This document shows positions 2,245 through 53,900 of a stretch of DNA of 64,000 bases, piece by piece. Both the position numbers and the translations under genes were made by a program. Under the pieces are notes generated by a model. It searched no databases and had not been told where the DNA came from. It was given only the letters and a program-made list of their open reading frames with translations. This stretch comes from Histomonas meleagridis 2922-C6/04-290x (Eukaryota; Protista; Parabasalia): contig JAANOX010000253.1 of assembly GCA_020184695.1 (NCBI GenBank), positions 395,114 through 459,113 of the forward strand. The letters are read 5' to 3'. Positions within the stretch are counted from its first letter, which is position 1; each line of letters begins with the position of its first letter.

Positions 2245-2282
2245 CTATTTTCATTTCTTACCTATTTTCGAAAAATAAAAAA

Positions 2283-3282: not shown

Positions 3283-3432
3283 AATAGAAAATATATATTA
3301 AACGCATAATATGTAAAATATTGAATTATATTAATGCATTTGAGTAACATTTATTTATTAGTTCGAGTTAGTAGTAAGTAATGATTATAATTAACAAAAA
3401 TCAATTAATTTATATGTAATTTTGTATAAACA

Positions 3433-5040: not shown

Positions 5041-5049
5041 TTTATTAAT

Positions 5050-5372
5050 GATATATTTATAATTCCTTTTTTAAGACAATCAATCTCCTTTTCGTTCCAA
5101 AGAATGGCAACTCTTTTGCCTGACACAATTTCACGCTTTATTGAATTTTGTCATTTTTCTGCAGATTTTCCAGGAAGTTTTACATTCTGTTCCTTAATTT
5201 GATCTTCAGGTTTCTTTTGAATTATTTCATTAGATTCTGTTGTTGAAAAATCATCATCTTCTCTGTTAGCCCATCTATAACCAACTATATAAGCATATGC
5301 CTCGCATACATCTTTATACTGAACTTTTTTAACCTCTAAGCTTTCGATAAAAGAATAGATGTCTTGCTCCAT
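5050..5372 (-). pseudogene. Truncated single-repeat Myb/SANT (telobox-like) gene
   Basis: ORF 5151-5372 continues in frame past TGA into KRVAILWNEKEIDCLKKGI, matching the first Myb helix (W..EE...L..G). The domain is then cut off by the minisatellite. Confidence 0.5.
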
Positions 5373-6479: not shown

Positions 6480-6932
6480 GTTGTCATGATATTTTTGTTA
6501 CTGAACACCTACTTTGTGTTTGGCCAAACATTTGAAAACTAATACATTACTCTTGAATATTTGAGTTTGCATGGATTTAGGTTCCCATATCTAGAAAAAT
6601 TTAAAGACAGAAAAAGGCTTGTTGAACATCTTGTCGAGAAATTTATTGTTGATAATTGTTGTGTATGTTGTTCTTGTCAATACAAGCAACTTTCTGCCAT
6701 TTGTGATCACGCAATTTCTTTTGAGGATGAAACAGCATATTATTACTCACTTGGAACTTATGTTTGTGAGTACAACCACTGCATTGATGAAAATGATGAA
6801 ATGCACTTATGTTCGATGAAGGGCATAAAATCTCTGTCTTTATCAACGCTACCGATAATTTACACATTCAAGCAGCCAAAAATAACAGTTTCTTGCCTAC
6901 AATACTCACAGTTGAATTTTAATATATCATAA
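6480..6932 (+). pseudogene. C2H2 zinc-finger gene fragment (copy 1 of 6)
   Basis: FVFGQTFENxYITLEYLSLHG and CVCCSCQYKQLSAICDH fit C-x2-C-x3-F/Y-x5-hydrophobic-x2-H. Differences from the 13.3-kb copy are often synonymous in this frame (GTT/GTG, TGT/TGC, GAA/GAG). Confidence 0.6.
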
Positions 6933-12603: not shown

Positions 12604-12949
12604 GAAAATTAAAATCGAATTTTTTTTTAAAAGTTAACAAATAAATCGAACCTATATTTCACTAAATTAATATCCATCAATATGTTAATAAAAATTTCGA
12701 TTTTCTACCAATTTTGATACATTCTTCTTGTACGACTTTTTGTTTTCCAAAAATACAAGCTTTTATGAACCACCAGATATATATGATCGAACGATATTGT
12801 GTCAAATGGAAATTTTTTTAGTTGAACGAAAATGTCCAACAAAAAAATGGAAAATTCAACAGAAAAAACATAAGTTTGAGTCAATATAAGTGGACGTCGA
12901 AAAAGTAGAATCAATTTCGTTTACATGCAAATTTAACTATATGATTTTG

Positions 12950-13549
12950 AAAATCTGTTTAATGTTTCTTGTATGATTTTAATGAGCGGAATCCCTTGTA
13001 AAACTTGTCGTATGCGTTTTAATACTATCACTGAAATTTCAAATCATCAACCAAAATTAACTCTTGAAAAATTTTAAGCCAAAAACGCAGAATAAGCAAA
13101 AGAAGGCGCTGAGAAATAAGTTGCTGAATACAAGCATCAAGAAATCATTAAAGTGGAAGAATTGATGGCGAATTAGATGAGTCTCAATGTTGTTATTTTG
13201 GTTACTAAATGTTTACTTTGTGGCTAAATATTTGAAAAAGAATAGATTACTCTTGAACATTTGAGTTTGCATGGACTTAGTTTCCAATATCCAGAAAAAC
13301 TTAAACATAAAAAGGCTTGTGGAATATCTTGGCGAGAAAGTTGTTGTTAGTAAATGCTGTGTGTGCTGTTCTTGTCAATTCAAGACATTTTCTGCCATTC
13401 ATGATCACGCAATTTCTTTTGATGAAGAATCAGCATATTATTACTCACCAGGAACTGGTGCTTGTGAGTGCAACCACTGCATTGATGAGAATGATGAAAT
13501 GCGCTTCGGTTCTATGAAGGACACAAAATCTCTGTCTTTATCATCTTAA
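12950..13549 (+). pseudogene. C2H2 zinc-finger gene, most complete copy (2 of 6)
   Basis: Three finger-like motifs: CKTCRMRFNTITEISNH, CLLCGxIFEKExITLEHLSLHG and CVCCSCQFKTFSAIHDH. Several in-frame TAA stops. Confidence 0.65.
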
Positions 13550-13764
13550 CCGATAATTTACACATTCAAAAAGCAAATAATTGGTCACCAGGTTTGAATA
13601 AGTGGCAATTATAAACTGTCCAAATGACATCTTCACAGCGCTGAAAACGACTGTAGCGCTGATGTTGCTGAGTTTCCTTTGCGCGGTGCAGCTCACTGTG
13701 CGCATAAGCATCAGTAAAAACTCTTAAAATTTTGTGTTTGGATTTTTTATTCAATCAAAGCATT

Positions 13765-19011: not shown

Positions 19012-19485
19012 TTGTGTAACCAACCAGATTTTGTAATAACAATCAAAATTTTAACTGTTATTAGAGATATTCTAACTGATAATAATATCCAACAATTACA
19101 CCAAGTAACCAAGTCGTTACATGTTACAAATCCATTTTTCAATATTATGACAATATCAATTGATCCAATATATCAAGTATTATCTTGCATACCTCCAATC
19201 TCCATATTTCCTTCATTGTTGTGGGTTTTGTGGTGTTTTGTCTTTCAACATTCTTTATCCATTTTTATCTTGGTTGAAATATTTCAAAATTCAAATTTTT
19301 GCTGTGATGTTGGCCATTCATCAAACACTAACCCTTTGTCGAACCCAAAAGACCATTCAAATGTTCTTTTGATCATATTTATTGATATCCAAATATTTTG
19401 TAATCAACACGATGTCCATCTTCCTTTACCAATTGTATCATCACTGCACCCTTTGTTTCCTAACACACGCGAAGCCACCATCTAA
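19012..19485 (+). CDS. Hypothetical ORF, with a decayed inverted paralog at ~14760-15260
   Basis: 157-aa ORF. The paralog retains NQH(D/E)xHLPLP...HPLFP...ATI* with several synonymous changes. No family recognised. Confidence 0.3.
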   Translation: MCNQPDFVITIKILTVIRDILTDNNIQQLHQVTKSLHVTNPFFNIMTISIDPIYQVLSCIPPISIFPSLLWVLWCFVFQHSLSIFILVEIFQNSNFCCDVGHSSNTNPLSNPKDHSNVLLIIFIDIQIFCNQHDVHLPLPIVSSLHPLFPNTREATI

Positions 19486-19761
19486 GTGGATCATAGTTTT
19501 GTCGTGTGAACATTTATGGAAGCGATGTTCCACCGACCACTTTCCAGAAAAAAGCACAGAATTTTTAAATGAATGTTCTGGAATTTATGGTCACAAAAAA
19601 ATTGTAACGAAATACGTCAACCGCAAATTTCAAACAAAAGTTGGAATTTTAACAGGTATTATTTTTACATTATCAAAAAGTTATCGGAAGCTTTTTTACC
19701 CTTTAAGAAAATTGTATCAAACTTGGCTGCATGGCCATCATCACCTCATTATCTAATAAGC

Positions 19762-20355
19762 ATGACTGCTGCGAACCACGCGCATCTCGTCAACTTCTGT
19801 CTTGAAATCATTCTTGGTGGTAACAAATATCCAGATCAAATCATAAATTACATAAGCAGCTGCTTGACATCGATCATACAGCAACAGGAAAACACAGAAG
19901 CAGCAATAAACTACATCAATTTGTTACCAATGGGCAGCTTAGCTCTCAGTCGCCTCAACGAGATCTTAAGTTGCAGAAACCAGCCACCACTTCCAGTTGA
20001 AGGCGACATCTTCAAGTGTAACTCTCAAGGTCGACAAGTTACACGTCACTGGAAGTATGCCGAAGACAATCGCTTGCTATGCGGCATTTACTTGTACGGT
20101 ACACAATGGAGCCTGATCGCCACATTTGTCGGGAACGGAAGAGATTGTTCGCAATGCCAACAAAGATGGCAAAGGGTTCTTTACCCAGGCATACGAAACA
20201 GGGTGTGGACACTGAACGATGACATAAAGCTTGCCAAGTTGCATAGTACCTATGGTAACAAATGGGCGCAAATTGCTCGGGAAATAGGCAACGCGTCGGA
20301 CACACAGTGCCGTTATCGCTACAATTCATTGTTGACGTCGCTGTTTCGCTTCTAA
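19762..20355 (+). CDS. Myb-like DNA-binding domain protein (trichomonad two-repeat type)
   Basis: WKYAEDNRLLCGIYLYGTQWSLIATFVGNGRDCSQCQQRW and WTLNDDIKLAKLHSTYGNKWAQIAREIGNASDTQCRYRY. ATG at 19762 aligns with the start of the 14-kb paralog. Confidence 0.9.
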   Translation: MTAANHAHLVNFCLEIILGGNKYPDQIINYISSCLTSIIQQQENTEAAINYINLLPMGSLALSRLNEILSCRNQPPLPVEGDIFKCNSQGRQVTRHWKYAEDNRLLCGIYLYGTQWSLIATFVGNGRDCSQCQQRWQRVLYPGIRNRVWTLNDDIKLAKLHSTYGNKWAQIAREIGNASDTQCRYRYNSLLTSLFRF

Positions 20356-20549
20356 AGAAGAATAAGGTAATTCATTACCTTTGGATTTAATAAACAAATC
20401 CAAACACAAAATTTTAAGAGTTTTTACTGATATTTATGCGCACAGTGCGCTGCACCTCGTCAAGGAAACTCATCAACTTCCACTCGATGCGATGTTATTT
20501 GTCCCTTTTATATTTGCCAATTGTTCAAATCTGGTGGCAAATTATTCGA

Positions 20550-20965
20550 AAATTGACGGTTACGATGATAAAGACAGCGATTTTATTTCATTCATCGGAC
20601 ATAAGTGCATTTCATCATTTTCATCAATGCATTGGTTGTACTCACAAACACAAGTTCCCATTGCGTAATAATCTGGTAATTCTTCCTTAAAAGAAATTGC
20701 GTGATCACGCAATGGAAGAAAGTTTCTTGAATTGACAAGAACAACATACACAACAATTATCAACAATAACTTTCTCGACAAGGTGTTCAATAAACCTTTT
20801 TTTTTTTTTTTTTTTTTCTAGATATGAAAACCTAAATCCATGCAAACTCAAATATTCAAGAGCAATGTATTTGTTTTCAAATGTTTTTGCAACAACGAAA
20901 TATTTAGTAACCAAAATCTCATGCCATTGAGAATCTTCAACTTCACCATCATCATCTTCCTCTTC
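20550..20965 (-). pseudogene. C2H2 zinc-finger fragment (copy 3 of 6)
   Basis: Near-identical to the copies at 25520-26150, 57240-57850 and 62350-62770. Confidence 0.65.
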
Positions 20966-21098
20966 GATTGCAATATCAATATCATCATTTTATTTACCCA
21001 AAATTTTTGTTACGAATCCATCTTCCAACTATTCTTGCGACTGTTGGTATCGGAAATAAATCATACACTTGACGTATTTGGTCAATAAGAGTTTTTTT
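20966..21098 (-). pseudogene. CCA-adding tRNA nucleotidyltransferase N-terminal fragment
   Basis: PTVARIVGRWIRNKILGK*NDDIDIAI matches the class II nucleotidyltransferase motif RxxGGWVRDKLLGxxSxDxDIA. It is fused directly to the zinc-finger fragment. Confidence 0.75.
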
Positions 21099-21160
21099 AG
21101 TTGTGAATGATTCTCCACTTTTTAACCCTTTTGTATTAACATTCATCCCCAAATACTGTA

Positions 21161-21630
21161 TTGCTTAATGCGTTAAATACTACAACAGAAGCTCAATCAC
21201 CTCCAACATTAAGTTATCAATTATTATTAATGTTAACTTTATTACAAACATTAAACACAGAAAATTATGATGAAATGTTAAATAGTTTCTTACCAGAAGT
21301 TGTTGGAGCATTAAAAGAACATGAATATAAAGCACATGAACCAGTTAGTGAATGTGTTTTAATACTATTGTAAGTGATTTCATAAAATAAGGAAAATCAT
21401 TAACACTATTGTTATTACATATATCTGTTAGTATAACACCAAATCCATGTAAATTTGGAAGGGATACAATTGATGCTATTGAATGTATAATTATCTTTAA
21501 CAAATTTGCACAAAATGTTAACCTTGAAGATCTTGGGCAATCTTGTTTAATATGTTTTAATGGTGCTGATTCCAACCCTAGATCAGATGTATTTCATTGT
21601 GTATTGCAATTTTCGAAAACATTAATTTGA
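21161..21630 (+). pseudogene. Helical-repeat (HEAT/ARM-like) protein fragment
   Basis: Two consecutive ORFs with an amphipathic leucine-rich helix pattern. Family not identified. Confidence 0.3.
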
Positions 21631-21678
21631 CGTGTTGTTTATAATGTATCAATAGCAAAGAGTAATAGACATTTAGCT

Positions 21679-21728
21679 ATGTCAAAATTCTTTGTTAATG
21701 ATTTAAATCAATTGTCTGGTTATAAAGC

Positions 21729-21771
<43 letters not shown>

Positions 21772-22444
21772 TGGAAAAATATCTATAAAACAACACAAGA
21801 AAACCAACAAGATATATTAAATCTTAAAGTTCCCCAATATTATGGTGACATAACATCTAAAATTAAAAATTTTGGAGAATATGATTTTAAAAGCATTGAT
21901 ATTATTCCTAAGACGTATTTTTGGTCTTTCATATTTTTTATACGAAACAGATTATAAATGGCTTCATAGAGGTGCTGATGATAATGTTATTAATGTAAAA
22001 CATACAGAATCATACTTTAAATCACTAGAGATGAAATATGATCCACTTACAGAACCAGTGATTTTAGGCTCTTGTGTTAAGATTCCTTCAACCAAAGAGT
22101 TTCTTCAAGGTGGTTCTGGATATCTTTATTCTAGGAAAGCGGTCGAATTAATGCTTCCGATTTATAAAAATGTTATATTTCATTGTAAATTAGCCGAAGA
22201 TGTTTGTCATAATGAATTCTTACATAGATTAAACATTAGTATTGTTGATGCAACATCATTTAACTTTTTGGAATATTCATTTGACAATGAAGATTTGCAG
22301 AAAATATATAATAGTGATTTTACTAATTTGACTTTATGTCCTGAAGAAAAGTATCCACAAGATTTAGAGCTTTGTGGATCTTTTCGTGGTCCACTTGATA
22401 GAGTTTATTTCTTTCAACACTATGTATGGTATGGATGTAGATAA
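21679..22444 (+). pseudogene. GT31/Fringe-like glycosyltransferase, frameshifted copy
   Basis: KWLHRGADDNVIN (DxD-like), KYDPLTEPVILGSC, FLQGGSGYLYSRKA and EDV. The intact inverted copy is at 61257-62015. Confidence 0.7.
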
Positions 22445-22798
22445 ATTAATAGAAAGGTCCAAAAGACTTTTGTATTATTTCCCTGATTTAAGATTTTCTA
22501 AACTATGTCGAGGTAAAGAGAAAGAATTTAATGTAAGCAAATTGTTATAAAAAAAAAAAAAAAACAAAATTCCTTCAAATATGAAGAATTGAGTAGAGAT
22601 TAATAAATCAGGGCGTGAATCAATTTATAAATAAAGAAGCTTAATATAATATTATTATTAATTTAGATAAGATGATCAATAAAAATATTCTTATTTTAAA
22701 ATTCCAATAGCATTAATCTAATCTATAGCTATACATTAAAAAACACACATAAAAAAAGCATCAAAAAGTAACACCAAGTTGACTACCTCTCTCTTTAT

Positions 22799-23788
22799 TT
22801 ATAACCATCTTCCCAAATTCTCTTTCTTTAATACAAATTTATTGTTTTCAACTCTGGAGAAAATTATTTGATTATTTAATTCGCATCTATTTATATTCGA
22901 AACGAATGAAATTCCGCCGTCACACTTATAGCATTTAGACTTTATGTACAATCCCATAAAGTAATCTGGATAATACATAAACAATGCATTAAAAACATTT
23001 TCTTCTCTGACAACATTTTTACATTGTGAAAGGTATAAGTCGTGAACTTTAAAGAACAATTCTTTTGTTTTTTTAATGGATTCTCTTCGACCACCAAAAA
23101 ATCCCCCAATTACAAAATTAGCAAAATTCGGATCAAGTTCTTTTAGTGGCTCATATTCTTTGCCAGAAAGATATTGTATCTCATTAAGTTCGATTAAAAA
23201 TTGTGGATGTGTTTCAAATATTTTCTCAACGCGTTTTTGAGATGGTATTTGAAGTCCTGTGAAATTCGTCTTTTTATTTATCCCGACATCAATCCAAAAT
23301 ATGTATTTATAATCATACGGAAAATTACTTACATATTCAAGTAAACATATTTTGGAATTCCATATGGAGTCAAGGTTTTCACTTATAATAATTTTTTTGT
23401 GCAATTTCAACATATTGCTTTTTGTATTTTTGTATATTACAAATGTCATATGGTGATTTATACGTAAAGTTAATGTAAAGAGATCGTATACTTGTGTTTA
23501 GTTGAAGTATTTCTAATCCTAATTCATTATTATAAAGATAAAAATCAGCTTCTTCTGATATCATTTTTTAGAAGTTTGATGAAGCATTCAATATATTATT
23601 TTTGTTGGATGTCTTTGAAGTTTTGATTCAAGAAAATAATAAAAAGATGAAACATAAGCAATGTTTTTCTTTTTTCCTTTATTCTCTCCAATTTTGCTTA
23701 TATTAAAAAAAGCTGTTTTTATTGGTGCACAGAAATGATAAAATATTATCCCTGCTAAAATCGGTTGAAAAATTGATACATAAAACAA
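22799..23788 (-). pseudogene. HtrL/YibB-like putative glycan-modifying protein, fragmented
   Basis: YIFWIDVG, FVIGGFFGG and EENVFNALFMYYPDYF resemble the HtrL/YibB pattern. The N-terminal hydrophobic segment lies in ORF 23588-23788. Confidence 0.45.
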
Positions 23789-24505
23789 AACATAATTAAA
23801 AAAAGTGGTGGGTTAGAAAAATTGGTTAATTTCTGGTGAATCCCTTTAGGATGTTTCAATTCCGTCTGTAGAAATGTTGCCTTCTGCTTTATTTCTGTTA
23901 GATTAAGTAAATTATTCAAAAATTTTGTGCACAAGAAAATGGAAAGTTGAAGGAAGAGGAAATCGTTTTTTAACTGTTTATTTAGTTCCACATATGCATT
24001 TTTTTAATTTTTTTCTGATATTTCATCATTTAACTTTTTATTTTTTTTGTAATTAATTTGAAATAATTATTCAATTTCTTGATTATTCATTTTTTAATTC
24101 CAAAATATTTTGAATTAATTCGTTTTGTTCTTCATTGAGAGTTGAGATTCTTTTGTTTTCTGTTTTTTTAACTAGTTTGCGAAGTTGCTGATTTTCTCGT
24201 TTTTGTTTTTTGTATATTTTTATTAAATTCGTTCTTATGCTCCTTTGGCTTCTAAAATTGTTTCAACTGAAGCTTGTTTCGAAACTAAATTATGAAGTTT
24301 TTTGATTAAATATGGAAGAACAGAGTGAAGTGATTGAAGTTTTTAGATTTTTGTTTCGTTTATTTTTGAATTTTGGTAATTAATCTTGATTTTCATAAAC
24401 AAAAATAATTACTGATTTTTTGTCCTTGGAGAATAAAATTAACTGTTTTGTCTTGTCTGGAAATCTTTTTATAAATAAGTTAACATAAAATTTTTTATTA
24501 TTTTA

Positions 24506-25220
24506 TTGTTGTCCATGGCAGCATTAATTCATGTGAAAGTATCCAAAGCACAATATTTAAATTATGATGGAGAAAATGAGACACTACCTAATACATTTGT
24601 TGCTTTATGTCTAAGAAGTCAATTCCCAACCAATTGTTTTGTTTCTTCTATTCAAGAAAAAACGCAAAATCCTATATGGAATGATGAATTCTTTTTTAAA
24701 TGTAAAGAGCCTAAATTAGATTCATTATTTATTGATATATATCAATTCATTGATGAATATCATAAGATTAAGATTGTAGACACAATAATATTTTTCAATA
24801 TCAAAATTAAACAAAATAAACAAAAAAATTATTAAAAACTTTTATTTGAAGCAATCAACAATAAATAAAAGCAAGAACGTGGTAGGATTGTTAACACTTG
24901 AATTTAAAACATTTAGAAGATCTATCAAAACAAGAACAAAAAAGATAACAAAAGTTAAAACAAAAAAAATATCAAAACCAATTTCACCCATTGAAAAAAG
25001 AAAGAATCCAAAAAAACTTCTAAAAGTCAGAAGGAATGTATTGAGAACGAAGAATCATGTGATAGTGAACAATATGAGCAAAAGAAAGGAATAAACCAAA
25101 TGAAAAAAGAAAAGAAAGGTTCAAAAAAAGAAAATACTAGAAGATCGAACTTAAATACATATGAACCACTTTATTTTTATGAAGATGCATTTTATAATGA
25201 AGATATTCAAAAATATGAAT
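24506..25220 (+). pseudogene. C2-domain protein, frameshifted copy
   Basis: IHVKVSKAQYL...PNTFVALCL...SSIQEKTQNPIWNDEFFF...DSLFIDIY is a C2 consensus, followed by a K-rich tail. Confidence 0.8.
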
Positions 25221-25519
25221 GAAATCTCTTTCACAAACGATGGATCCATCCATACTTTTAAAAGTAAATCTCATTAGTGAGCTATTTTTGTTATTCGAAT
25301 TGCCTATTAGAATTTGAAGAAATATATAATCCGAAATTTAAAAAAAATATTATCATAATATGAACATATCACAGCTTTAGGTACCTGTTATTGTTTTAAT
25401 TATATTTCTTTGGTTATTTTTTTCTCATTTGAGCTATACATATTAATTAAGCTTTTTAATTTATTCAGATCATTAAAATGAATAAAAATTTACTACCAAC
25501 CGTTTGAATAAAATTCGTT

Positions 25520-26395
25520 TTGAAAATTGACGGTTACGATGATAAAGACAGCGATTTTATTTCATTCATCGGACATAAGCGCATTTCATCATTTTCATCA
25601 ATGCATTGGTTGTACTCACAAACACAAGTTCCCATTGCGTAATAATCTGGTAATTCTTCCTTAAAAGAAATTGCGTGATCACGCAATGGAAGAAAGTTTC
25701 TTGAATTGACAAGAACAACATACACAACAATTATCAACAATAACTTTCTCGACAAGGTGTTCAATAAACCTTTTTTTCTGTCTTTAAATTTTTCTAGATA
25801 TGAAAACCTAAATCCATGCAAACTCAAATATTCAAGAGCAATATATTTGTTTTCAAATGTTTTGCCACAACGAAATATTTAGTAACCAAAATATCATGAC
25901 ATTGAGAATCATCAAATTCACCATCATCATCTTCCTCTTCAATGATTACTTGATGCTTGTATTCAGCAACTCATTTCTTAGCGTCTTCTTCTGCTTGTTC
26001 TGCTTTTTTGGCTAACAATTTTACAACATTTAATTTTTGGGTGCTGGTTTTAAATTGCAGTGTTGTCGTTCGAACGCACAGGACAATTTGTACAATGGAG
26101 TCCGCTCATTAAAATCAAGCAAGAAATATAAAATATATTTTCAAAACCATATGTATATCGCATCGGATAATGGTTTTCCAAGTGAATTTGTATCTGAATA
26201 AGTAAAATCATCAGTCTTAAAGAACAAATATCAATCCAAAATTCATTATTAATAAAATGTGTTCAATTGTGATAAGTTTTTACATATCAGTATTTTTGTA
26301 TTGGAAATATTTCATTTTATTTTTCATTAAAAGCACGACAATCACATCCTTCTATTGCAATATCAATATCATCATTTTATTTACCCAAAATTTTT
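25520..26395 (-). pseudogene. CCA-enzyme fragment fused to C2H2 zinc-finger fragment (copy 4 of 6)
   Basis: Inverted mirror of 56990-57850. Confidence 0.65.
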
Positions 26396-26921
26396 CTCAA
26401 TAAATCAATAATATTTTAAGTATACTAATCTTTAATTTTAGAAATAATTATGTTTCTATTAATAACATATAAAACTCAACTTGCGATTTTGTACCATCGC
26501 ATATAGCGATCATCCTACGATCTTGATATTATGAATATATAATATATATACAATGTTGCATCTATGATTAATGAATAACTAAGAATAATATCATGATTAG
26601 CACAAAATAAATTTATTCTTTCACTCAAAAAAGTGCCAAATTCGACTTTTGCATAGTTTACATCAAACATTAGCTACAACGATAAGTGCCGATAGAAGCT
26701 TTAATGATTGATGGTAAATATAATTCAATTTTTACTATTTAAAAAAAAAAAAAAAAAAACAGACAGACACACTTCACAATTCCATTGTGATGCTTTGCAT
26801 ATGGTTTCAAATCCCCTTTATGTATATTGTCGTAAAAAGTAAATTATATATCATTGTAAAATTCATTATTTTTATAAATAAAAAAATATACAAATAATAT
26901 ATTAATATTTTTATAAAAATA

Positions 26922-27522
26922 TTACTGTTTATAAATTAACCCTGTAGATTTTACAAATTTTTAAACTGATATGTCGTTTATCAAGAAATTCTATGACATC
27001 TGGATAAGTATATTTTAAATTAAATGTTTCATTATTCTTCTTAACATATATTTTACTAACATAATCATAAGGATTGCTTTTACAACAATAACTATCAGTA
27101 TCTGCTTTTAATAATTTTATTTCATCAGTATCACATAATAACTGTATTAATTTGATTAGTTCATTTTCTTCAGCAATAACATACTTATTTACTATTAATG
27201 GGTTATTTTCAATAATATCTATTATTAAAATTAATGCTTGAATAAGATTATTTTTATTATTATGAATAATTTGTTGAATATTATTGTTTAATTCATTTGC
27301 TGTTTCTATGCTTCTTTCTACAGTAAGTTCATTATTATTGTTATTATATGGATATTTAACATCAACTTTAAGGTTATTACATAACCCGGCATCATGTGAT
27401 GCTTCAAAAGGATTTACAACAACATTAACATTTTGGTTTTGCTGTGGTGAATTAATATTTGTATTTACTTTTGCGAGGAATCATTTTGAACAACTTAATA
27501 CATGAGAATGTGGAACTGACAT
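26922..27522 (-). pseudogene. Conserved PLV hypothetical gene (MSVP...NPLIVNKYVIAEE...CCKS)
   Basis: Homologous to 34020-34586 and mirrored at 55869-56465. One premature TGA. Confidence 0.65.
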
Positions 27523-27909
27523 ATTTTTATTATATATAAAAAAGTATATATGACTGATATATTTAATATTATTAAAAAAATGAAATTAAATAAAATATTT
27601 ATTATTAAACAAATATCATATATTGAATTAATCAATTTTTATATTAATGATTTAGTAATATATAAATATGTTGTAATAGTTGCAAAATAGTAATAATATT
27701 AAAAAATGTAAAAAATTAGGTATTAATAATATATATAATATATATGATAATGATAACTATAATAAATTTATTAATATAAAAATTAAACCACCATTACATA
27801 ATGTTAAAAAAGGTAGATATATATTAATGTATAATCATAACATTAATGATATTACTGTATGCTCTGGTGAAGAAAAATATTAAAAAAACATATAAAATTA
27901 AAAATATTT

Positions 27910-29230
27910 TTATCTAGTAAATCCAGCTAAAACTTGTTCAATAGATGCGTTGGTAATTTCTATTTGAGATCCACCATCTGGTTTCATTAAACAAATTTTT
28001 AATATAGCATCTTCGAAATATATGCCAACTGGTGATATGAAATCCATATTTAAAATACTATTACTACCACCTTTACTACTGGGTATTCTATTACCATGTA
28101 ATTCTATTTGAACAGTGCCAGTTGTAGAGATACCACCTTGAAAAATCTTCACCCTCAGCAAATGGTAAACCAATGAAAAAATTACTATTATCTTTACCAT
28201 GCCAAACTTGTTTTTTTGTTATTCTAGAACTATCATCATCATATACATATTTATAATAATATGGTTGTAATGAAGTTTTAATATCATTATTTATACTACT
28301 TAATAAACTAACATTTAAATTCAATGCATCCAATGTCATATTTAAATGTTTAGAATCATTGATAGTTTCATATGATTCTCTTGAAGATATTTTACAATCA
28401 ATATTAAATCTATATTCTAATTGTGGGTTAATAAAGCACGTTCTACTATATTGATTTATTCTAAATACTGTAAACAATGTATCACAATGTCTTACACCTA
28501 TCGTAGCAGCAGTATCTAAATCATTATTTTTCAATAATGGTTGTGTAAAATCTCTCACTTCACATATATGTATTGGAAATAATAATGGGGTCTGGACATA
28601 TTTAGCAAATAATGCATTAAATACATCAATTTTTAACATATATTCTACTAATTTAATTTTAACATCTTTTGTAATTTGTGTATTATATTTAAATGTTTGT
28701 GATATGACGGTTGTATTAGTTGTTTTATTAATATTATTATTAACAGTTTCATTAATATTTCTGAAACTAAAATCTATTTTTATAATCATTTTGTAAGACT
28801 GTATCTTGAACTTTAGACATATCAACAATTGGAACTATTACCAAATTTTGATACGATGGCATTAATTCTATTGATAATTTTCCATCCCAGTTTGGATAAT
28901 ATCTCATATTAAATAATAATAAGAAATATGATAATGGTATTCGTAAAGGTATTTCTATAGTAATAAATTATTATGACTCATTATTTGAATACTAACTATA
29001 GTTTCTTTTTGTTCTTTATCTCCATTTTTTACAATACATTTTAATGCAATTACATGTCTTTATTTTGACTAGGGGATTCTAACCAACGTTGTGGATGACG
29101 AAATGTATAACCATTATTTTTATTTACATTAGTTAAATCTCTTTCATATTCTTCAATATCTAAATTAGTATAATTTTTGTTCTATAGGTAATTCTGATGC
29201 ATGAGTAGTAAGTTGCTTTTCAGTTCTCAT
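27910..29230 (-). pseudogene. Chimeric capsid gene: structural-gene N-terminus joined to putative major capsid protein C-terminal part
   Basis: The N-terminus (MRTEKQLTTHASELP...PQRWLESPSQNK) aligns with 42529+. The C-terminal part (PIHICEVRDFTQP, RTCFINP, SNFFIGLPFAEGEDFQGGISTTGTVQIEL) has no counterpart in family B. The MCP call is inferred from context and beta-rich character. Confidence 0.5.
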
Positions 29231-29247
29231 TTTAATTAGTATAAAAT

Positions 29248-30463
29248 ATGATTGAATCTAATAGAATTGAAACTATACTTAAATCTTTAATGAATAAAAA
29301 TAGTGTAGTATATTATAAACATAGTAAAACTTCTGATACCTTATCTAATGGTATTTGTTCATTAACAATTAATAGTGTAGATAAATTATTTATAATATTT
29401 ACTTATGGAAGATGTCATTTAATAATTAATCCTCTAGATTCCAGTATCAAAGGTCTTGTTTTAATAAACGATTATTTAGTAAGTGATATTATTACAGGAT
29501 CTAATATAATGAATAATGCTTATCTAAATCAAATGTTTAGTAATATTGATAAAGTATTGGACTTATATAAGGAATTTATTAAAATCGATCAGGAAAGTAA
29601 TAGTGTTAAAACATCTGATATGTTAGTAAATAATATTAATGGTTATTCTACAGAGAATTTTGCTTCGAAGAATCATAATCATGATGAAAGATATTCTTTA
29701 ATATCACATACACATAACATTATTGATAACGATTTAAATGTTAACGGTAATCTAACTGCTATAAAAATAAATGGATATTATATTTATGATAGTTCTGGCG
29801 GAGGATCTAATACAGCAATAAATATCCTATGTATAGCTACTATTAAAACAGATGGTGTTATGGAAGTAGGAGAATATATTGATTTTCATTATATATATGA
29901 TTATAATAAAGATAATAATTGGAGAATGAGAGCTTTAACTGATACTATAAGTTTTCAAGCAAAAGGAGGTAAAACAATTAGTTTTAGCAATGCTGGTAAT
30001 ATAAATTGTAATTCTATTAATAACATATCTACTGATAATATTTTTTTAAACGATCATAACCATGATGATAGATATTCATTATTAAATTATACATACTGAT
30101 TATTTAACAAGTGCAAATTTAGAAAATATCGATAATAAGTTGACAGGAATTATTTCTAATAAAGATTATATCGGAACTAACGAGGAGGAGGATATTTTTG
30201 AAATATATACTGTTATAAATCAAGATTTAAAAGTAAATGGTAATATAGAAGTTGATACTATCAAGAATTTATCTATTAATAATTTTTCATTAATAAATCA
30301 TACACATGATCAATATTTAACAAATGATATTTTAATCAATATAAATTAGGCTTTAACAGAAATATCATATAATGAATTTAATAAATGGACTAAGATTGAG
30401 AAAGATTTAATAGTAGGTAATGACATCAAATGTAGAATTATGTCAGCAAGTCGTAATATCAAT
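29248..30463 (+). pseudogene. Fibre-like protein with HxH (HNHDDRY/HTH) repeats, truncated
   Basis: Homologous to 39510-42512. The reading frame runs directly into the (AC)n putative terminus at 30464. Confidence 0.65.
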
Positions 30464-30570
30464 ACACACACAGGGGAGATTTCACTTCGTTTCACTCCCC
30501 CACTTCGCTTCGCTCGGTGTGTGTTATATCGCCTTCGGCTCAAGCTTCACTCACTACGTGCGCTCAGTAA
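30464..30570 (+). other. Putative PLV terminus: 5'-(AC)4-AG plus GC-rich hairpin cluster
   Basis: ACACACACAGGGGAG...CTCCCC stem, with GCTTCGC (30507-30513), GTTTCAC and GCCTTCGGC (complements of GAA-triloop mini-hairpins). Mirrored at 52886-52992. Confidence 0.6.
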
Positions 30571-30685
30571 AATATAAAAAAGTCAACTTTTTTAAATATA
30601 TATCCTAACATAATGATAATAATAATATATAATGAATGAATATTGTAGAAATACTATAAAATTGATGAAAATTATAATATGTCCT

Positions 30686-31290
30686 GCATGTCCATGATGT
30701 CCACGGTTGTCCTAGGACATTTAACTACTTATAAAACTTACCCGCAACACGCAATTTCGCAACAATTATAAAATTACATAAAAACATCGTGTCTGTAATT
30801 TTTTTCATATTTTTAAGTTCGCAACAATGATATATTCCTAACGTTATAATATTGTATATACTATATTATTGCGTAGTAAATTATTTTAATAATACCTATT
30901 TAGAAAGGACATATTCGGAAAAAAAAAAAAAAAAAAATATATTTCAACATAATGATTGTATATATGCTCTTTTGCGTAATAATTATATTATAGTTTTTAT
31001 ATCTCATCTAGGACATATAATTAACAATAATATATATTGTTGAAATATAAATTGTTGAGAAATATAATCGTTGAAATAAATTGTTTGTGAAATAAATATT
31101 TTTAACAGAATAATAATAATAATATTGTCCGTCTTTGTCCTTTATAAATAGGTATTATTAAAAAAATATTTTTTTATAAGCAAATAAGCATTTATTGTAT
31201 AATAATTGTTGCATAATTGCGTGTTGTGGGTGAGTTTTTAGGAGAAGTTAAATGTCATAGGACGACCGTGGACATCCAGGACGTTGTGGA
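30686..31290. repeat. ~85-bp imperfect inverted repeat pair in the family A non-coding region
   Basis: ATGTCCACGGTTGTCCTAGGACATTTAAC...CAACACGCAATT..GCAACAATTAT at ~30686-30772 versus its complement at ~31200-31290. Multiple GGACA/TGTCC motifs. Mirrored at ~52170-52770. Confidence 0.85.
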
Positions 31291-32039
31291 CAAACAAGAG
31301 TTTTAATCAAATTTATCGTAATTATACATTATTCATTTTTATAGATAAATTATACAAAGATTATCGTAATTTAAACATCATTAAAAATAACTATATTTTC
31401 AACAAATTTATCGTTCAAAAATAATTCTGAACAGTTGCACTTTTGAACGCCAATTTATTGGCTTGAATTCTTCATATGAACTAAAATAATAGTTTTAATA
31501 AATTATAACTATATAATGCTTTTACATATCAAACTTTACATGCTTATCTTTATCAATTACTTTTTGATTTGAATTTTTATTGGGACTTTCAATATTTGAT
31601 ATATCATCTGAAATACAAAAACATTCATTTAGATCATTAATTTTAGATTTGATCTTATCACATTTTTCTGTTAGTTTATTTTTGATTCATTTGATTATTT
31701 CATTCTTAGCATTCATATAACTTATTATTAACTTCAGAAGATGATATATTAGTAAGCTTTTTTTGATTTTTTAGCAAGCATATTATTAATAAATTTAAGA
31801 TTTAAAGCATTTAATATATTAAGTTTATCATCGTAAAACTTAACATTAACAAAGATAACACATTGTTTGATAGCTGTTCTAGTCTTTTTACCTATTTTCG
31901 TTAATATATTATGAGAATATTTAATATTAACAACTTTATATTTATCGTTATATTCAGATTTAATATACTCTTCAAATGATTCCATATTCATATATAAAAA
32001 AACATATTATTATATATAATAAAAAAGCATTTTATTTTT

Positions 32040-32500
32040 TCTCAATACTTTTTGGTAAAGTTAAGGTAATTCTTCTAGCTTTCATATATATATTATTGAA
32101 TCTGGTGTGTTGATCTTTGATTTTATGATATTCATTCCACATCTTATCAACATTAAAATAACTAGGAGGACTATTTTTCATTAACTCATAAAAACATTCT
32201 TTTGATATGCCTGGAAATAATATTATATCACTTAATGTTCTTTTTAGATCTTTAGGTATAGATTTTACAGTTTGAACACATATAACAATTAATTCAAAAA
32301 ATGGTTCATTAAATATAACTTCCTGATATGCAGATAATTTTTAATAGGAGCTATAAAAGCACATATACCATATCGAGATAAAAGGTATTCCTCATGAATA
32401 GGTCTAATTAAAGCATTATTTAATACATCCTTATATAATTTTACTTATATTATTAGAGTTATCATCAATCTCTTTAAATTTACTATCTTTATTTATCATA
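32040..32500 (-). pseudogene. A32-like packaging ATPase remnant with internal deletions
   Basis: Keeps IRPIHEEYL..YGICAFIAP, EPFFELI and VICVQTVKSIPKDLKRTLSDIILF. The Walker A lysine and Walker B are deleted. Mirrored at ~50960-51420. Confidence 0.7.
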
Positions 32501-33605
32501 AATACTTTTAAATAAAAATAAAATATATAACATTATTGAATATTTTTCATTCATTTCTGACATACCACTTATTCTTATTGTGGTATACATTTGATATAAT
32601 AAATATATTTCATGTAAGTTAGCGTTTACCAATATTAATTTAAAATGAGATAAATCATTAGTATTCATTTCTACTGCAAAATCTGCATTATTAACTATTA
32701 TAGAATAATTAGCACTGAAACTATTATTTACTCTTAATATTATTTTCGATATATTAAGATTATTATTTAAATTTCTATAACTACTTTTTCCTAAGTTTGA
32801 TACTATATATAATATTGGTGTTGAAAGATAGTTTCCTACTGATTTTGCTGAAATTTCGTATTTATTATTTTCATTATTATAACTAGCAGGTAATGGTAGT
32901 ATTTGATCATATAAACCTGATAATTGAAATATATTATAACTATAACTATTAATAATAAATTGATTATTAATTTTCTAGTAGGTGGACTAGGGAGATTTAT
33001 ATCAATTCTATTATAATGTTCATAATCATATGCTAATATCGTATAATCAATGCCCTCGTGTAGTATCTTATATAAAGTTGAAATATACTATCTTTGATTT
33101 ACATAAAATTCATAAATTTTATTTTTATTTTTAATAAATATAATGCCAAAGAGATTAAATACTAAAACAGTTAAAAATCTATATAATAAATATGGATATA
33201 CTCTACCAGATAATTTTGAACATATAAATACTACTATCAAATATAAAGTATTTGATGAAAGAAATAATAAGTATACTAAATTATCGTATAATCAGCTACA
33301 ATATAAAATTAAGAAAGGTTTATCAGAATATGATTCATTTGATGATTATTATAATATGGCTTTTATCAGATAAAGAATTTGCAGAGAAACCTGTTGGAAA
33401 AAATAAATCTATTAATGATATAACTAAAGATTTAATAAATAAATTATTATTACAAAAAGATTTTACTTATAATAATATTAATAAATAACATAACATTATA
33501 TTATATGCTTTAATGTATGCTATTAAATCAGTTGGTGCTAAGATCAATAAAGATATTAGAATGACAATAATTGGTGATGATAATAATATATCTTACTATC
33601 ATGCC

Positions 33606-37593: not shown

Positions 37594-38132
37594 TTAAATT
37601 AATTTTTTATACTGCTCTTTAGTAAGAAATATATGATTATTTTGTAAAGCACAAACTATTCCTTGATTTATTGCATCAGCTATATCATCTTGCTTTTCAT
37701 ATTTTTCTAAATTATCTGGCATTTGAGATGAACTCCAAGAACTAAAATATTTTTCCTCAACATTATTTAAAAAGTTTCTTGCAATATTAACGCTCAATTT
37801 CTTATGAGCTTTATTTTTGGTGTTATATTCTAAACCTAAATATAAATTTTTTTTTTTTTGGTTCAAATAAATGAACATTAGCTCTGAAGGCTAGTGAAAT
37901 AGTAATGATACTATACATTAATTCCATGGCAATGATATTTCTGGGAATTGTTTTTCAATTACTACTGTATCAATATTATTATTTCTTATAATATTGCCAA
38001 TATATTGATTAATCTGCATTTCTCGATAGCATTTTTGGCTTTTGATATATCGATAACGTCAAAAGTAATAGCCGGAAAAGTAATGGCGTAAGCAAGATTT
38101 TTAATTCCAATATCGATTGACAATATCGGCAT
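37594..38132 (-). pseudogene. Poxvirus A22 / RuvC-like Holliday junction resolvase, frameshifted
   Basis: N-terminal MPILSIDIGIKNLAYA (ATG 38130-38132) and C-terminal KQDDIADAINQG match the A22/Ydc2 acidic catalytic motifs (SIDxGxKNLA; KxDDxAD). Confidence 0.8.
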
Positions 38133-42813: not shown

Positions 42814-43963
42814 TGATTCTATGATAATATTTAATAATTTTTGGACAACCGTAAAACCCCATTCAAAATGTTGGACTAAAATAAAACATTTTTTTTAATG
42901 ATTTTTAATTAAATTAAGCTGGATATTATTGTTCCAGGATCTTTTCGTTCCATTTTGGTGTATTCCATAAATATCGTGGATCGCCATATTCCATGGCGTT
43001 GAATTACATTATCTTGGATACCTAGTTTTGCGGTAGCATTCGCTCCGCCTTTCCTTAGGGAATGGGAAGAATATTTATTGTGTTCTTTAATTCCAATATT
43101 CATCATTATATTTTTGATTTTTCTCGAGAATGTTTCATTAGAAAATTTAAAAACCTTTTCATTTTGGTCGAATTGTTTAAGCGAAAAAAAAAGTTGAACT
43201 CAATTAAACGGATTATGCTGTTGCTTGATAGGGTCACCCTTTATTATGAAACACATAGTACCACATGACAATGGATCATTTTTTGATCGTTTAATATTTA
43301 AAGAAATTCCATCTTCTTCAATTTATATGTCATTAAACTCAAGATTTGATAATTCAGAAAATCTTAATAAACCAAAATATGAAAGAGAAATTGCAGTGAA
43401 GAATTCTACATCTGAATATAAATTCTGATTCATAATTTTAGAAATTTTAATCATATCTTATTTTGTAATTGGTTTTTTTTTTGCTTTTTTATGGGAAACT
43501 CCAAGTTTTCTTTGAATTGATTTGATGTAATTTTGAAATTCATATGATTTTGTCTCATCATTTTGTTTTTGTGAATTGTAGTAATAAGAAAAACTAGAAA
43601 TAAATAATTTAAATGTGCTATATTGTATCGGTGGTTGACAAACATCTAATTTAAAGTGTAAAAATCATCTAATGTTTGCTTCTGTTAGAAATGGTGGAGG
43701 AGCTCCTTGTATTTCTTTCATTGTTCTTTCATAACTATTAAAATATGATTTATATGTGCTAACCGATGAAGGATTAATGGCGAATGCTTCCGACTCTTTT
43801 GTTGCCTCAACGAAGTCTTCAAAGTTCATTTTGTGACCGACCTCGGTCACATCATTTTGAATGGGGTTTTACGGTTGTCCAAAAATTATTAAATATTGTC
43901 ATAGAATAAAAGTTTTTGGCAACAACAGTCGCTTCAAGACGGTTGACCAAAAACTTCTAAGTT
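42814..43963 (-). mobile_element. Tyrosine-recombinase (Crypton/TEC-like) DNA element with ~55-bp inverted repeats
   Basis: IR at 42816-42870 versus 43853-43907 (one mismatch). No target-site duplication beyond TT. Boundaries defined by the restored host frame. Confidence 0.8.
42909..43850 (-). pseudogene. Tyrosine recombinase (phage-integrase fold, DIRS/Crypton-like)
   Basis: YFGLLRFSE (R), IKRSKND (K), SSHSLRKGGA (H-x-x-R), HGIWRS (H/W) and FMEYT (Y). Several in-frame stops. Confidence 0.9.
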
Positions 43964-48305: not shown

Positions 48306-48540
48306 TACCTAACTTACCAAGGTTTTATTCCTCTTTATACTTTATGTATTTTTTTCTTGTTTCTCATTATATACTGTTATTTTTTCTTATTCTTTTCATT
48401 TCTTGAAATCTCTGAGTTTTACAGGTAAGTTAGGTTAGGAGTAAGTCTTAAATTTATTTTATTTTCCGCACATGTTACCGTAAACTTGACCGTTAATTAT
48501 TAATTTCAGTCATCCTCTCGTCGTTAATGCTTTCTTTTAT

Positions 48541-48600
48541 GTAGCGCGTATTGCTGCGAGCGTATCACGCGAAGCAGCAATAGTCGCTGTGTGTGTGTGT
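48541..48600 (-). other. Putative family B terminus: 5'-(AC)6-AG plus hairpin
   Basis: The minus strand reads ACACACACACACAGCGAC. Stem TATTGCTGC/GCAGCAATA with inner GCGT/ACGC. GCGAAGC at 48569-48575. Confidence 0.65.
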
Positions 48601-50097
48601 ACATATAAGCTCCATAAAGATCTATATAATAATACTTACCTATTAAATGTATTTGTTGCCATATATTTTTAGGAAATATCCATTTATTACGTATTTTATT
48701 AGCTATATCACCTGATAATTCGTATACACCATTAAAACAACCATACTCATACATAATCTTTAACACTAAATCACTATATCTATAATATTTTACAACATTA
48801 ATATTTAATTTTAATTTATTATTAATAATATTTTGTAATTCATTTAATCTATATCCTAATTCTTTATCAGTTATATCATATCCAAATAACTTCTTGCTAT
48901 GTTTCATTATTTTTAACAAATTTGAGTATAAACTCCTTATCAGGTATTTTTATTAATTTATAATTATTATAAGGTTTAATTACTGCTTTGTAGCTCCAAC
49001 ATAATTTATTATAAATGTTGATATCGATAGGTTTTAATAAATTATATTGTTTCATAACATCAATTAAAGAATATATATATATATTCATCCGTATATTCGA
49101 TGGGTTTAGATTTATTATAATTTGTAATACTATCAATTGATATATTAACATTTCCATTCAACATATGATGATTATATATAATTATTAATTTTATACTTTT
49201 ATCATATTGTTTTCCATAATCTCTGTGAGTAAAACCTTTGTTAGCCATATATCTAATATTAATATGAATTTTTAATAAATCAGATATATCTTTTAATTGT
49301 TATAATGGAACTGTTCTAGTATTGATAAATGATCTTAGCATATTAATCTCATTTACTGTAAATAAATTACTAGCAATAAATGATTGAACTAAACAAGATT
49401 CATTAATAATATCAATGTTGATGTTATTGAAAATACCATACTTAGTGAGATCTATATTAGTTATAATAATATAAGGGAAAAATCCTGGATTAACTCTTTA
49501 ACTATTTTTTAAATTTTCGAATTCAAATTTTATAGATATAATATTTTTGAAAGTGTCTAATGCCAATGTATTAGAATCACTAATATTATATTTTTCATTA
49601 ATAATATCATATAAGAAATTAACAGTATTCATATTTCCATGATAGTAAGATATATTATTATCATCACCAATTATTGTCATTCTAATATCTTTATTGATCT
49701 TAGCACCAACTGATTTAATAGCATACATTAAAGCATATAATATAATGTTATGTTATTTATTAATATTATTATAAGTAAAATCTTTTTGTAATAATAATTT
49801 ATTTATTAAATCTTTAGTTATATCATTAATAGATTTATTTTTTCCAACAGGTTTCTCTGCAAATTCTTTATCTGATAAAGCCATATTATAATAATCATCA
49901 AATGAATCATATTCTGATAAACCTTTCTTAATTTTATATTGTAGCTGATTATACGATAATTTAGTATACTTATTATTTCTTTCATCAAATACTTTATATT
50001 TGATAGTAGTATTTATATGTTCAAAATTATCTGGTAGAGTATATCCATATTTATTATATAGATTTTTAACTGTTTTAGTATTTAATCTCTTTGGCAT
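48601..50097 (-). pseudogene. Family A PolB, truncated just after motif A
   Basis: MPKRLNTKTV...FFPY...GCFNGVYELSG...YYYIDLYGAYM, then abuts the family B (AC)n terminus. Confidence 0.75.
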
Positions 50098-50926: not shown

Positions 50927-53900
50927 TGTTATATATTTTATTTTTATTTAAAAGTATTTATGATAAATAAAGATAGTAAATTTAAAGAGATTGATGATAA
51001 CTCTAATAATATAAGTAAAATTATATAAGGATGTATTAAATAATGCTTTAATTAGACCTATTCATGAGGAATACCTTTTATCTCGATATGGTATATGTGC
51101 TTTTATAGCTCCTATTAAAAATTATCTGCATATCAGGAAGTTATATTTAATGAACCATTTTTTGAATTAATTGTTATATGTGTTCAAACTGTAAAATCTA
51201 TACCTAAAGATCTAAAAAGAACATTAAGTGATATAATATTATTTCCAGGCATATCAAAAGAATGTTTTTATGAGTTAATGAAAAATAGTCCTCCTAGTTA
51301 TTTTAATGTTGATAAGATGTGGAATGAATATCATAAAATCAAAGATCAACACACCAGATTCAATAATATATATATGAAAGCTAGAAGAATTACCTTAACT
51401 TTACCAAAAAGTATTGAGAAAAAATAAAATGCTTTTTTATTATATATAATAATATGTTTTTTTATATATGAATATGGAATCATTTGAAGAGTATATTAAA
51501 TCTGAATATAACGATAAATATAAAGTTGTTAATATTAAATATTCTCATAATATATTAACGAAAATAGGTAAAAAGACTAGAACAGCTATCAAACAATGTG
51601 TTATCTTTGTTAATGTTAAGTTTTACGATGATAAACTTAATATATTAAATGCTTTAAATCTTAAATTTATTAATAATATGCTTGCTAAAATATCAGAAAA
51701 AAAGCTTACTAATATATCATCTTCTGAAGTTAATAATAAGTTATATGAATGCTAAGAATGAAATAATCAAATGAATCAAAAATAAACTAACAGAAAAATG
51801 TGATAAGATCAAATCTAAAATTAATGATCTAAATGAATGTTTTTTTGTATTTCAGATGATATATCAAATATTGAAAGTCCCAATAAAAATTCAAATCAAA
51901 AAGTAATTGATAAAGATAAGCATGTAAAGTTTGATATGTAAAAGCATTATATAGTTATAATTTATTAAAACTATTATTTTAGTTCATATGAAGAATTCAA
52001 GCCAATAAATTGGCGTTCAAAAGTGCAACTGTTCAGAATTATTTTTGAACGATAAATTTGTTGAAAATATAGTTATTTTTAATGATGTTTAAATTACGAT
52101 AATCTTTGTATAATTTATCTATAAAAATGAATAATGTATAATTACGATAAATTTGATTAAAACTCTTGTTTGTCCACAACGTCCTGGATGTCCACGGTCG
52201 TCCTATGACATTTAACTTCTCCTAAAACTCACCCACAACACGCAATTATGCAACAATTATTATACAATAAATGCTTATTTGCTTATAAAAAATATTTTTA
52301 ATAATACCTATTTATAAAGGACAAAGACGGACAATATTATTATTATTATTCTGTTAAAATATTTATTTCACAAACAATTTATTTCAACGATTATATTTCT
52401 CAACAATTTATATTTCAACAATATATATTATTGTTAATTATATGTCCTAGATGAGATATAAAAACTATAATATAATTATTACGCAAAAGAGCATATATAC
52501 AATCATTATGTTGAAATATATTTTTCAACAATATTATGTCCGACTATGTCCTTTATAAATAGGTATTATTAAAATAATTTACTACGCAACAATATAATAT
52601 ATACAACATTATAACGTTAGGAATATATCATTGTTGCGAACTTAAAAATATGAAAAATTACAGACACGATGTTTTTATGTAATTTTATAATTGTTGCGAA
52701 ATTGCGTGTTGCGGGTAAGTTTTATAAGTAGTTAAATGTCCTAGGACAACCGTGGACATCATGGACATGCAGGACATATTATAATTTTCATCAATTTTTA
52801 TAGTATTTCTACAATATTCATTCATTATATATTATTATTATCATTATGTTAGGATATATATTTAAAAAGTTGACTTTTTATATTTTTACTGAGCGCACGT
52901 AGTGAGTGAAGCTTGAGCCGAAGGCGATATAACACACACCGAGCGAAGCGAAGTGGGGGAGTGAAACGAAGTGAAATCTCCCCTGTGTGTGTATTGATAT
53001 TACGACTTGCTGACATAATTCTACATTTGATGTCATTACCTACTATTAAATCTTTCTCAATCTTAGTCCATTTATTAAATTCATTATATGATATTTCTGT
53101 TAAAGCCTAATTTATATTGATTAAAATATCATTTGTTAAATATTGATCATGTGTATGATTTATTAATGAAAAATTATTAATAGATAAATTCTTGATAGTA
53201 TCAACTTCTATATTACCATTTACTTTTAAATCTTGATTTATAACAGTATATATTTCAAAAAAATATCCTCCTCCTCGTTAGTTCCGATATAATCTTTATT
53301 AGAAATAATTCCTGTCAACTTATTATCGATATTTTCTAAATTTGCACTTGTTAAATAATCAGTATGTATAATTTAATAATGAATATCTATCATCATGGTT
53401 ATGATCGTTTAAAAAAATATTATCAGTAGATATGTTATTAATAGAATTACAATTTATATTACCAGCATTGCTAAAACTAATTGTTTTACCTCCTTTTGCT
53501 TGAAAACTTATAGTATCAGTTAAAGCTCTCATTCTCCAAGTATTATCTTTATTATAATCATCTTTATAATGAAAATCAATATATTCTCCTACTTCCATAA
53601 CACCATTTGTTTTAACAGTAGCTATACAAGGTATGTTTATTGCTGTATTAGATCCTCCGCCAGAACTATCATAAATATAATATCCATTTATTTTTATAGC
53701 AGTTAGATTACCGTTAACATTTAAATCGTTATCAATAATGTTATGTGTATGTGATATTAAAGAATATATTTCATCATGATTATGATTCTTTCGAAGCAAA
53801 AATTCTCTGTAGAATAACCATTAATATTATTTACTAACATATCAGATGTTTTAACACTATTACTTTCCTGATCGATTTTAATAAATTCCTTATATAAGTC

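Follow-up and report, generated by a model that had tools for sequence, protein, structure and literature searches.

A nested Maverick/Polinton-type element end in Histomonas meleagridis with an (AC)n cap and candidate GNA-loop hairpins

Position 30464 of the window (the whole 64-kb stretch of Histomonas meleagridis DNA analysed here, with a GC content of 25%) is almost certainly where a Maverick/Polinton-type element ends, one that was probably inserted by an integrase and now lies nested within the fibre-like gene of another element. The junction itself is an ordinary nested Maverick end, and nested trichomonad Mavericks, parabasalid Maverick capsids and AC-type ends are all already known. 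A hairpin with a GNA loop at the termini of parabasalid Mavericks is probably an undescribed structural feature: a conserved GNA hairpin in Maverick terminal inverted repeats (TIRs) finds no mention in the running text of the articles searched.

An element end within a fibre-like gene

Homology and contig divergence delimit the N-terminal part of the interrupted gene to 29248–30463 on the plus strand. The gene is putative, and the name "fibre" is inherited from an earlier reading made from the sequence alone; its longer homologues have 1000–1230 amino acids (58 matches). It is broken already upstream of the junction, where the frame changes near 30090 and a stop follows at 30347–30349, and is then cut at the junction. 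The sequence-only reading had the fibre frame stopping abruptly at this point, which is incorrect, as the frame 30350–30577 is open through the adjoining island and only the homology ends, at 30460 against the fibre homologue P0002 and at 30464 in contigs.

Contigs were compared over 30400–30720 in four DNA runs, which come from two samples of a single study that may be the source of the assembly. In all four runs, other copies of the fibre-like gene diverge from the window at 30463–30464 and continue with different letters. Summed contig depth, which does not equal copy number, falls across 30465 (bins 30455–30465 versus 30466–30476) from 87,079 to 2,419 in run X1 and from 106,593 to 1,902 in run X2. 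Over a longer span of run X1, it amounts to 11,265–193,302 in the element left of the junction (A-left) and to 1,322–6,254 in most bins of the genes to the right (A-right), and this low depth right of the island indicates that the two sides of the junction differ in repetition. A second copy of the end matches 30463–30555 and has 213 unrelated letters upstream (the same in record 4 of X1 and record 13 of X2), and in a third copy, in record 21 of X3, (AC)6AG is preceded by a different flank again. At least two end copies with unrelated flanks besides that in the window therefore occur among the contigs listed.

These observations bear out the proposal, made from the sequence alone, that an element terminus is hidden in what was called family A, which is hence two pieces. 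The depth step, the divergent fibre copies and the unrelated flanks all point to a terminus. Copies end sharply at the (AC)n with variable flanks, three unrelated ones being seen in the same organism, and the two outcomes that would have spoken for an internal feature, namely a fibre sequence upstream of every copy or homology continuing past the (AC)n, are both contradicted by the contigs. For the continuation of the fibre gene beyond the insertion, no nearby match was found in the window; a single match with two mismatches lies at 39298.

The window contains Myb-like, E2F and clathrin-adaptor genes, with decayed mobile genes alongside. Searches with tblastn, using the intact proteins of the related metagenome locus L027, identified decayed genes PY, W, a major capsid protein and YZ in A-left, the host element (26956–29172; 41–68% identity). 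In A-right, tblastn identified a decayed small gene, an A32-type ATPase, gene X and the start of a polB-like gene (31773–33603), which are probably the body of the element inserted at 30464. The original copy of this polB-like gene (48601–50097, minus strand) is truncated by the end of a further element, B, at 48600, beyond which are genes for a D5-like helicase, an ATPase, a recombinase-like protein, a fibre, DUF3839 and HNH. Three elements are thus nested at the locus, A-left being cut by A-right and A-right by B, and a partial duplication came later. A-left, A-right and element B are each truncated within the window.

The duplication spans about 14 kb, with approximately 19444–33603 being an inverted duplicate of 63857–49638 at 94–99% identity. 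At its breakpoint, 33603/33604, the polB-like gene of A-right is joined to gene W of element B, and no repeat end is found at this join. Junction contigs at the breakpoint have roughly double the depth of single-locus contigs, which is consistent with two real copies.

Organization of the terminal island

The inserted element begins with an island of 52% GC (30464–30570), compared to 22% in 26900–33600. The island had been described as the only GC-rich one of the element, and indeed it is the only 100-bp interval with at least 48% GC between 20376 and 48514. Its terminal repeat, 5'-(AC)4AG (30464–30473, plus strand), is recognized by the depth step, the variable flanks and a cap in common with the end at 48600 and with the metagenome loci L020, L021 and L035. 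On the minus strand, a subterminal stem (30473–30500) pairs GGGGAG (30473–30478), an arm that begins at the terminal AG, with CTCCCC (30495–30500). The hairpins AC-GAA-GT (30484–30490) and GT-GAA-AC (30489–30495) lie within this stem on the same strand, and the mini-hairpins GC-GAA-GC (30507–30513), which is the canonical GCGAAGC, and GCC-GAA-GGC (30531–30539) lie outside it; a further mini-hairpin, CAC-GTA-GTG, occupies 30552–30560, also on the minus strand. The sequence-only reading had placed three GAA hairpins on the complementary strand inside the stem. All three are present, but only GT-GAA-AC is inside, and AC-GAA-GT and CAC-GTA-GTG had gone unnoticed.

A (GT)4 run (30517–30524, plus strand) is predicted to pair with the terminal (AC)4 and would allow the 3'-terminal (GT)n to fold back; the predicted fold of 30462–30530 that includes this pairing has a z of −3.2 to −3.8. 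A similar fold-back is present at L020/L035, and there is none at 48600 or L021. ViennaRNA folds prefer longer stems, and GCC-GAA-GGC is the only mini-hairpin to appear in them. No known structured RNA was recognized in 30300–31500, where Rfam gave no match at E-values up to 1.

The TIR has an inferred minimum extent of 30464–30783 (plus strand), based on record 15 of X2 (30516–30703) and record 20 of X3 (30537–30783), in which other loci connect the island with the block downstream. Its inner part includes a 145-bp block (30625–30769, plus strand) that is 79% identical to an inverted paralogue at 31202–31346 (minus strand). The island itself recurs at 52886–52992 (minus strand), with 98.1% identity over 2.1 kb; this copy sits in the 14-kb inverted duplication and is not independent. 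A comparison of the TIR at 30464 with those of L020, L021, L035 and element B revealed no similarity beyond A-rich noise.

It is extremely improbable that the junction arose by chimeric assembly or belongs to the interior of the fibre gene. A large inverted duplication such as that in the window is a pattern that amplification artefacts can yield, but the window's own junction is covered without mismatch by one contig of 267 nt in X1 and one of 258 nt in X2, and the island is absent from other fibre copies. We also consider it highly improbable that the island terminates a short non-autonomous derivative (approximately 30464–31350, with the 145-bp inverted pair as its inner bound), in which case the ATPase and polB genes would be a further fragment. 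The 79% inverted block at 31202–31346 would be unexpected within one TIR, and among the contigs listed none from another locus links the island to the genes. However, a list of all (AC)4/(GT)4 runs in the window includes no (GT)n where the right end of such a derivative would fall, depth is low alike over the island and the genes, and insertions of one TIR into another do occur, as seen in L020.

Related ends and target sites

Ends like that at 30464, which we interpret as the outer end of the nested A-right element, occur elsewhere. Within the window, only three runs of four or more AC units are followed by AG, and they lie in the island, in its duplicate and at the end at 48600. The last is a second, different end, that of element B (48491–48600, minus strand), with 5'-(AC)6AG, a long imperfect hairpin and GC-GAA-GC; it cuts the polB-like gene of A-right, and the cut falls exactly where homology to the polB of element B ends ("GAYM").

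A metagenome scan identified 26 related loci with the same gene set, and three of them (L020, L021 and L035) carry an (AC)6–8AG cap. The cap follows the helicase in L020; in L035 it follows the integrase and cuts gene Z of another copy. L020 and L035 represent opposite ends, with a common 345-bp block (89% identity), a common terminal 81 bp (96%), (AC)6AG and unrelated flanks. TIRs ending in a short tandem repeat, as in Mavericks and Polintons, are therefore represented by one end in the window and by both ends in L020/L035. The partner of the end at 30464 is absent from the window, and no target-site duplication, which in parabasalid Mavericks has 5–6 bp, was seen. The L020/L035 TIR is bipartite (L020 9399–9936, L035 5968–6701), in that a non-matching middle of differing length separates the shared inner 345 bp from the terminal 81 bp. 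In L020, an inverted TIR block (78%) spans the terminus, akin to the 145-bp inverted pair of the window.

All seven (AC)n ends have a T directly outside, for which composition alone gives a probability of about 0.001. The end may be 5'-T(AC)nAG with T30463 as the first base of the element, or the integrase may favour targets of this kind. In L035, the A that adjoins the repeat and pairs with the outer T is missing from all eight intact gene-Z copies found, which leans towards a T encoded by the element. As for a target-site palindrome behind the outer T, A-N4-T was rejected, an A six bases out being present in three of seven flanks and not above background; an A four bases out, in five of seven flanks, is unconvincing after several lengths had been tried. 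DNA-pattern matches in IMG/VR (9 and 3) and in prokaryote genomes (at least 121) were dropped as chance because no element gene is encoded at any of these 133 loci. Scans of IMG/VR with the fibre and capsid found no relative.

Gene content and Maverick/Polinton membership

The gene kit resembles that of Mavericks. An rve integrase gene adjoins the TIR in the relative L035, 34 of 48 members of the integrase family match rve, and the family profile matches retroviral integrases at 3e-8. We infer that an rve integrase carried out the insertion; no integrase match was found within the window, where all three elements are truncated. An A32-type packaging ATPase is recognized in element B (Pox_A32, E 1.1e-7) and in L027 (E 1.7e-6), with homologous fragments at 32050–32423.

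The major capsid protein of 544 amino acids has a predicted double jelly roll (model pLDDT 80; Foldseek E 5e-14 to the Sputnik capsid), and the best matches of the modelled fold are to Sputnik, iridovirus and mavirus capsids. Its homologue in A-left is at 27922–28964, and Histomonas homologues are 60–65% identical; no capsid gene was seen in the A-right fragment. For an adenovirus-like cysteine protease, Pfam gave no match among 39 frames of the window.

The polB-like family (L027 3400–5892) has motifs resembling A, B and C in seven of seven aligned homologues, and would on these motifs be a putative family B polymerase. Motif C of family B reads DTD. In the present family, all seven aligned sequences have YSK(T/V)DS at motif C and DQAGAYMS at motif A, the protein has no polymerase match in Pfam, PHROGs or PDB, and its structure model reaches a pLDDT of 41. 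Possibly, to judge from the motifs, this is an unusual or reduced polymerase.

Parabasalid Maverick capsids were already described (PMC10120064), and DUF3839 is listed among the genes of Trichomonas vaginalis Mavericks in a second paper (PMC12289875). Together with the Histomonas homologues of the capsid, DUF3839 suggests a parabasalid host. According to the text of the latter (Sullivan et al. 2025), these Mavericks, TvMav1–3, share with the present elements an integrase, polB (here a polB-like gene), A32 ATPase, DUF3839, primase/D5, HNH and a tail-repeat protein, TvMav3 being closest, and nested insertions among them are likewise described. Element B also has a tyrosine-recombinase-like fragment (42912–43199, minus strand; Phage_integrase E 0.003, a match below the cut-off) and an A22-like resolvase fragment (37597–37890); neither was seen among the ORFs of L027.

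GNA triloops on the 3'-terminal strand

We searched the first 110 nt of each end for d(GNA) triloops closed by C·G with at least two base pairs and compared the counts with 5000 dinucleotide shuffles. The background is 0.037–0.038 triloops per 110 nt per strand. At 30464, the minus strand has four, that is, four candidate mini-hairpins of the d(GCGNAGC) type, and the plus strand has none; the shuffle mean is 0.16 and none of the 5000 shuffles reaches four, a probability that is optimistic because this very sequence served to choose the pattern. The 3'-terminal strand carries one triloop each at 48600, L020/L035 and L021, and the other strand has none in all four families. For these three ends, which were not used to define the pattern, the shuffle means are 0.14, 0.02 and 0.04 and the P values 0.13, 0.016 and 0.039; the end at 48600 is on its own not above chance.

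Paralogous contigs show how the hairpins vary. In one, G30507A and C30513T together give AC-GAA-GT and keep the stem, with some doubt about the alignment due to a deletion three bases away. Two others have GCA in place of GTA as the loop of 30552–30560 and have lost the outer pair of CAC-GTA-GTG. Contigs covering GCC-GAA-GGC (30531–30539) list no substitution. Covariation of the hairpins, which the sequence-only reading had proposed as a check, is borne out by the stem-keeping double change in one paralogue and by changed stems across families and T. vaginalis Mavericks.

In the latter, 13 of 13 canonical elements have a C-GNA-G on that same strand, no further than about 55 nt from the start, as read by eye in supplement 5 of PMC12289875; the copies are related, fall into two or three classes and do not represent 13 independent events. 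Eleven of the triloops have at least two base pairs, and in two the second pair is mismatched. The loop is GCA in ten, GAA in two and GTA in one, and one entry starts truncated. The words CAC-TGC-G, CAC-TAC-GT and CAC-TTC-GT are common to these Mavericks and the Histomonas elements. Unlike the present ends, the T. vaginalis ends are AGTTAGT or poly(A) and not (AC)n, and most have one terminal triloop as opposed to four at 30464. The text examined of that paper makes no mention of the hairpin.

GNA triloops also occur away from termini. In seven of the 26 metagenome loci, near-identical intergenic inserts carry four to six GNA triloops on both strands, and clusters of such triloops are thus not confined to element ends. 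The insert is polymorphic, palindromic and 150–260 bp long, lies between genes X and YZ (L012 190–440, and also L011, L013, L014, L016, L019 and L021), and is missing from L024–L027 and L032. It may be a small mobile repeat.

A candidate origin of protein-primed copying

We consider it probable, by analogy with known protein-primed systems, that the (AC)n cap and the GNA hairpins on the 3'-terminal strand together form an origin of protein-primed copying. In the proposed sequence of events, the junction at 30463–30465 is an element end with variable flanks in a nest of three elements, whose relatives have an rve integrase, a double-jelly-roll capsid, an A32 ATPase and TIRs with the same cap, and which would have been inserted by the integrase. 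The polymerase would then start on a protein primer opposite an inner position of (GT)n and jump back, for which adenoviruses and tectiviruses provide the precedent. Short terminal repeats allow such jumping-back in protein-primed replication, and the same is expected in Mavericks (PMC8097293, text consulted). Jumping back would restore the end and, as we propose, explain the four to eight repeat units among copies; the variable repeat number could be a footprint of jump-back or of slippage. If the outer T is the first base of the element, a simple two-base jump-back fails to explain the repeat. Once the 3'-terminal strand became single-stranded, in an opened origin or as a displaced strand, the triloops could fold, withstand nucleases as well as single-strand-binding protein, and offer the end to the primer–polymerase complex.

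Several known systems offer parallels. AC-type Mavericks of Monopterus albus (Barreat and Katzourakis 2021, PMC8097293) have a 5'-(AC)3A end that was read as a jumping-back signal. They differ in their vertebrate host and fixed motif of 6–7 bp, whereas the ends reported here have four to eight units followed by G, and an outer T in seven of seven; the available text reports no hairpin and does not contain the word. Streptomyces telomeres, which depend on Tpg and Tap, also have terminal-protein-primed ends, palindromes on the 3' strand capped by sheared GNA loops, and an optional fold-back of the very end, and two GNA-capped palindromes of the telomere overhang hold Tap-binding sites, according to the texts consulted (PMC5449611, PMC7205883). 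In contrast to the present elements, they are bacterial, lack a family B polymerase such as is proposed here and a short terminal tandem repeat of the (AC)n kind, and patch their ends after internal initiation; the likeness is one of analogy, and no Tpg or Tap gene is present among the annotated frames of the window. Mini-hairpins form with GNA loops exclusively and are resistant to 3'-exonuclease and poor binders of SSB, and hairpins of the GCGNAGC type occur at single-stranded initiation sites such as the phage G4 origin, RSF1010-type ssiA and the N4 vRNAP promoter (text of PMC13037366). Those sites differ in being internal and read by a primase or RNA polymerase, and no RNA polymerase was seen in the present elements.

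More tentatively, and with slightly less than even confidence, we suggest that a structural origin signal, overlooked when sequences are compared, is common to parabasalid Mavericks: a sheared-GNA mini-hairpin 20–55 nt from the end, whatever the terminal repeat, which a divergent polymerase–primer complex would read as folded single-stranded DNA, convergent with Streptomyces telomeres.

The hairpins could instead serve another step, such as recognition by the integrase or the packaging ATPase, or protection of a single-stranded end, and have no part in initiation. A location beside the end suits whichever step processes the end, mini-hairpins are best documented for their resistance to nucleases, and the putative polymerase is assigned from motifs, with no library match. 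We nevertheless regard this as unlikely: the terminal triloops keep strictly to the strand on which initiation would be templated, and rve integrases are known to read duplex ends. Very unlikely, too, is a view of the hairpins as palindromic modules, selfish or neutral, that accumulate in noncoding stretches of the elements, TIRs included. Polymorphic intergenic GNA clusters do exist in the related loci, and the excess of triloops at 30464 over other ends suggests local amplification; yet the intergenic clusters occupy both strands and come and go, whereas the terminal triloop is constant in strand and in distance (about 20–55 nt) and is kept, with changed stems, across families whose TIRs have no other similarity.

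The start of Maverick replication has so far been argued by analogy with adenoviruses and tectiviruses, as in the text of PMC8097293. A hairpin at the ends that is short, strand-specific and covarying provides a defined substrate, in which reading of the duplex sequence and reading of a folded single strand can be distinguished by single-base changes in the loop. It could also be a family-independent marker for element ends where Mavericks make up about 40% of the DNA and are mutually nested (PMC12289875, text examined). A shared structural origin signal, if true, would be a first handle on Polinton end recognition.

Other repeats in the window

A Merlin/IS1595-type transposase in two frames (2286–3297, minus strand) is followed by a long array of 8-bp tandem repeats (3248–4500). 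A dispersed host repeat of 400–600 bp (6445–6883, 12939–13581, 20545–20968 and 25519–26152), with a zinc-finger-like frame, adjoins Myb-like genes.
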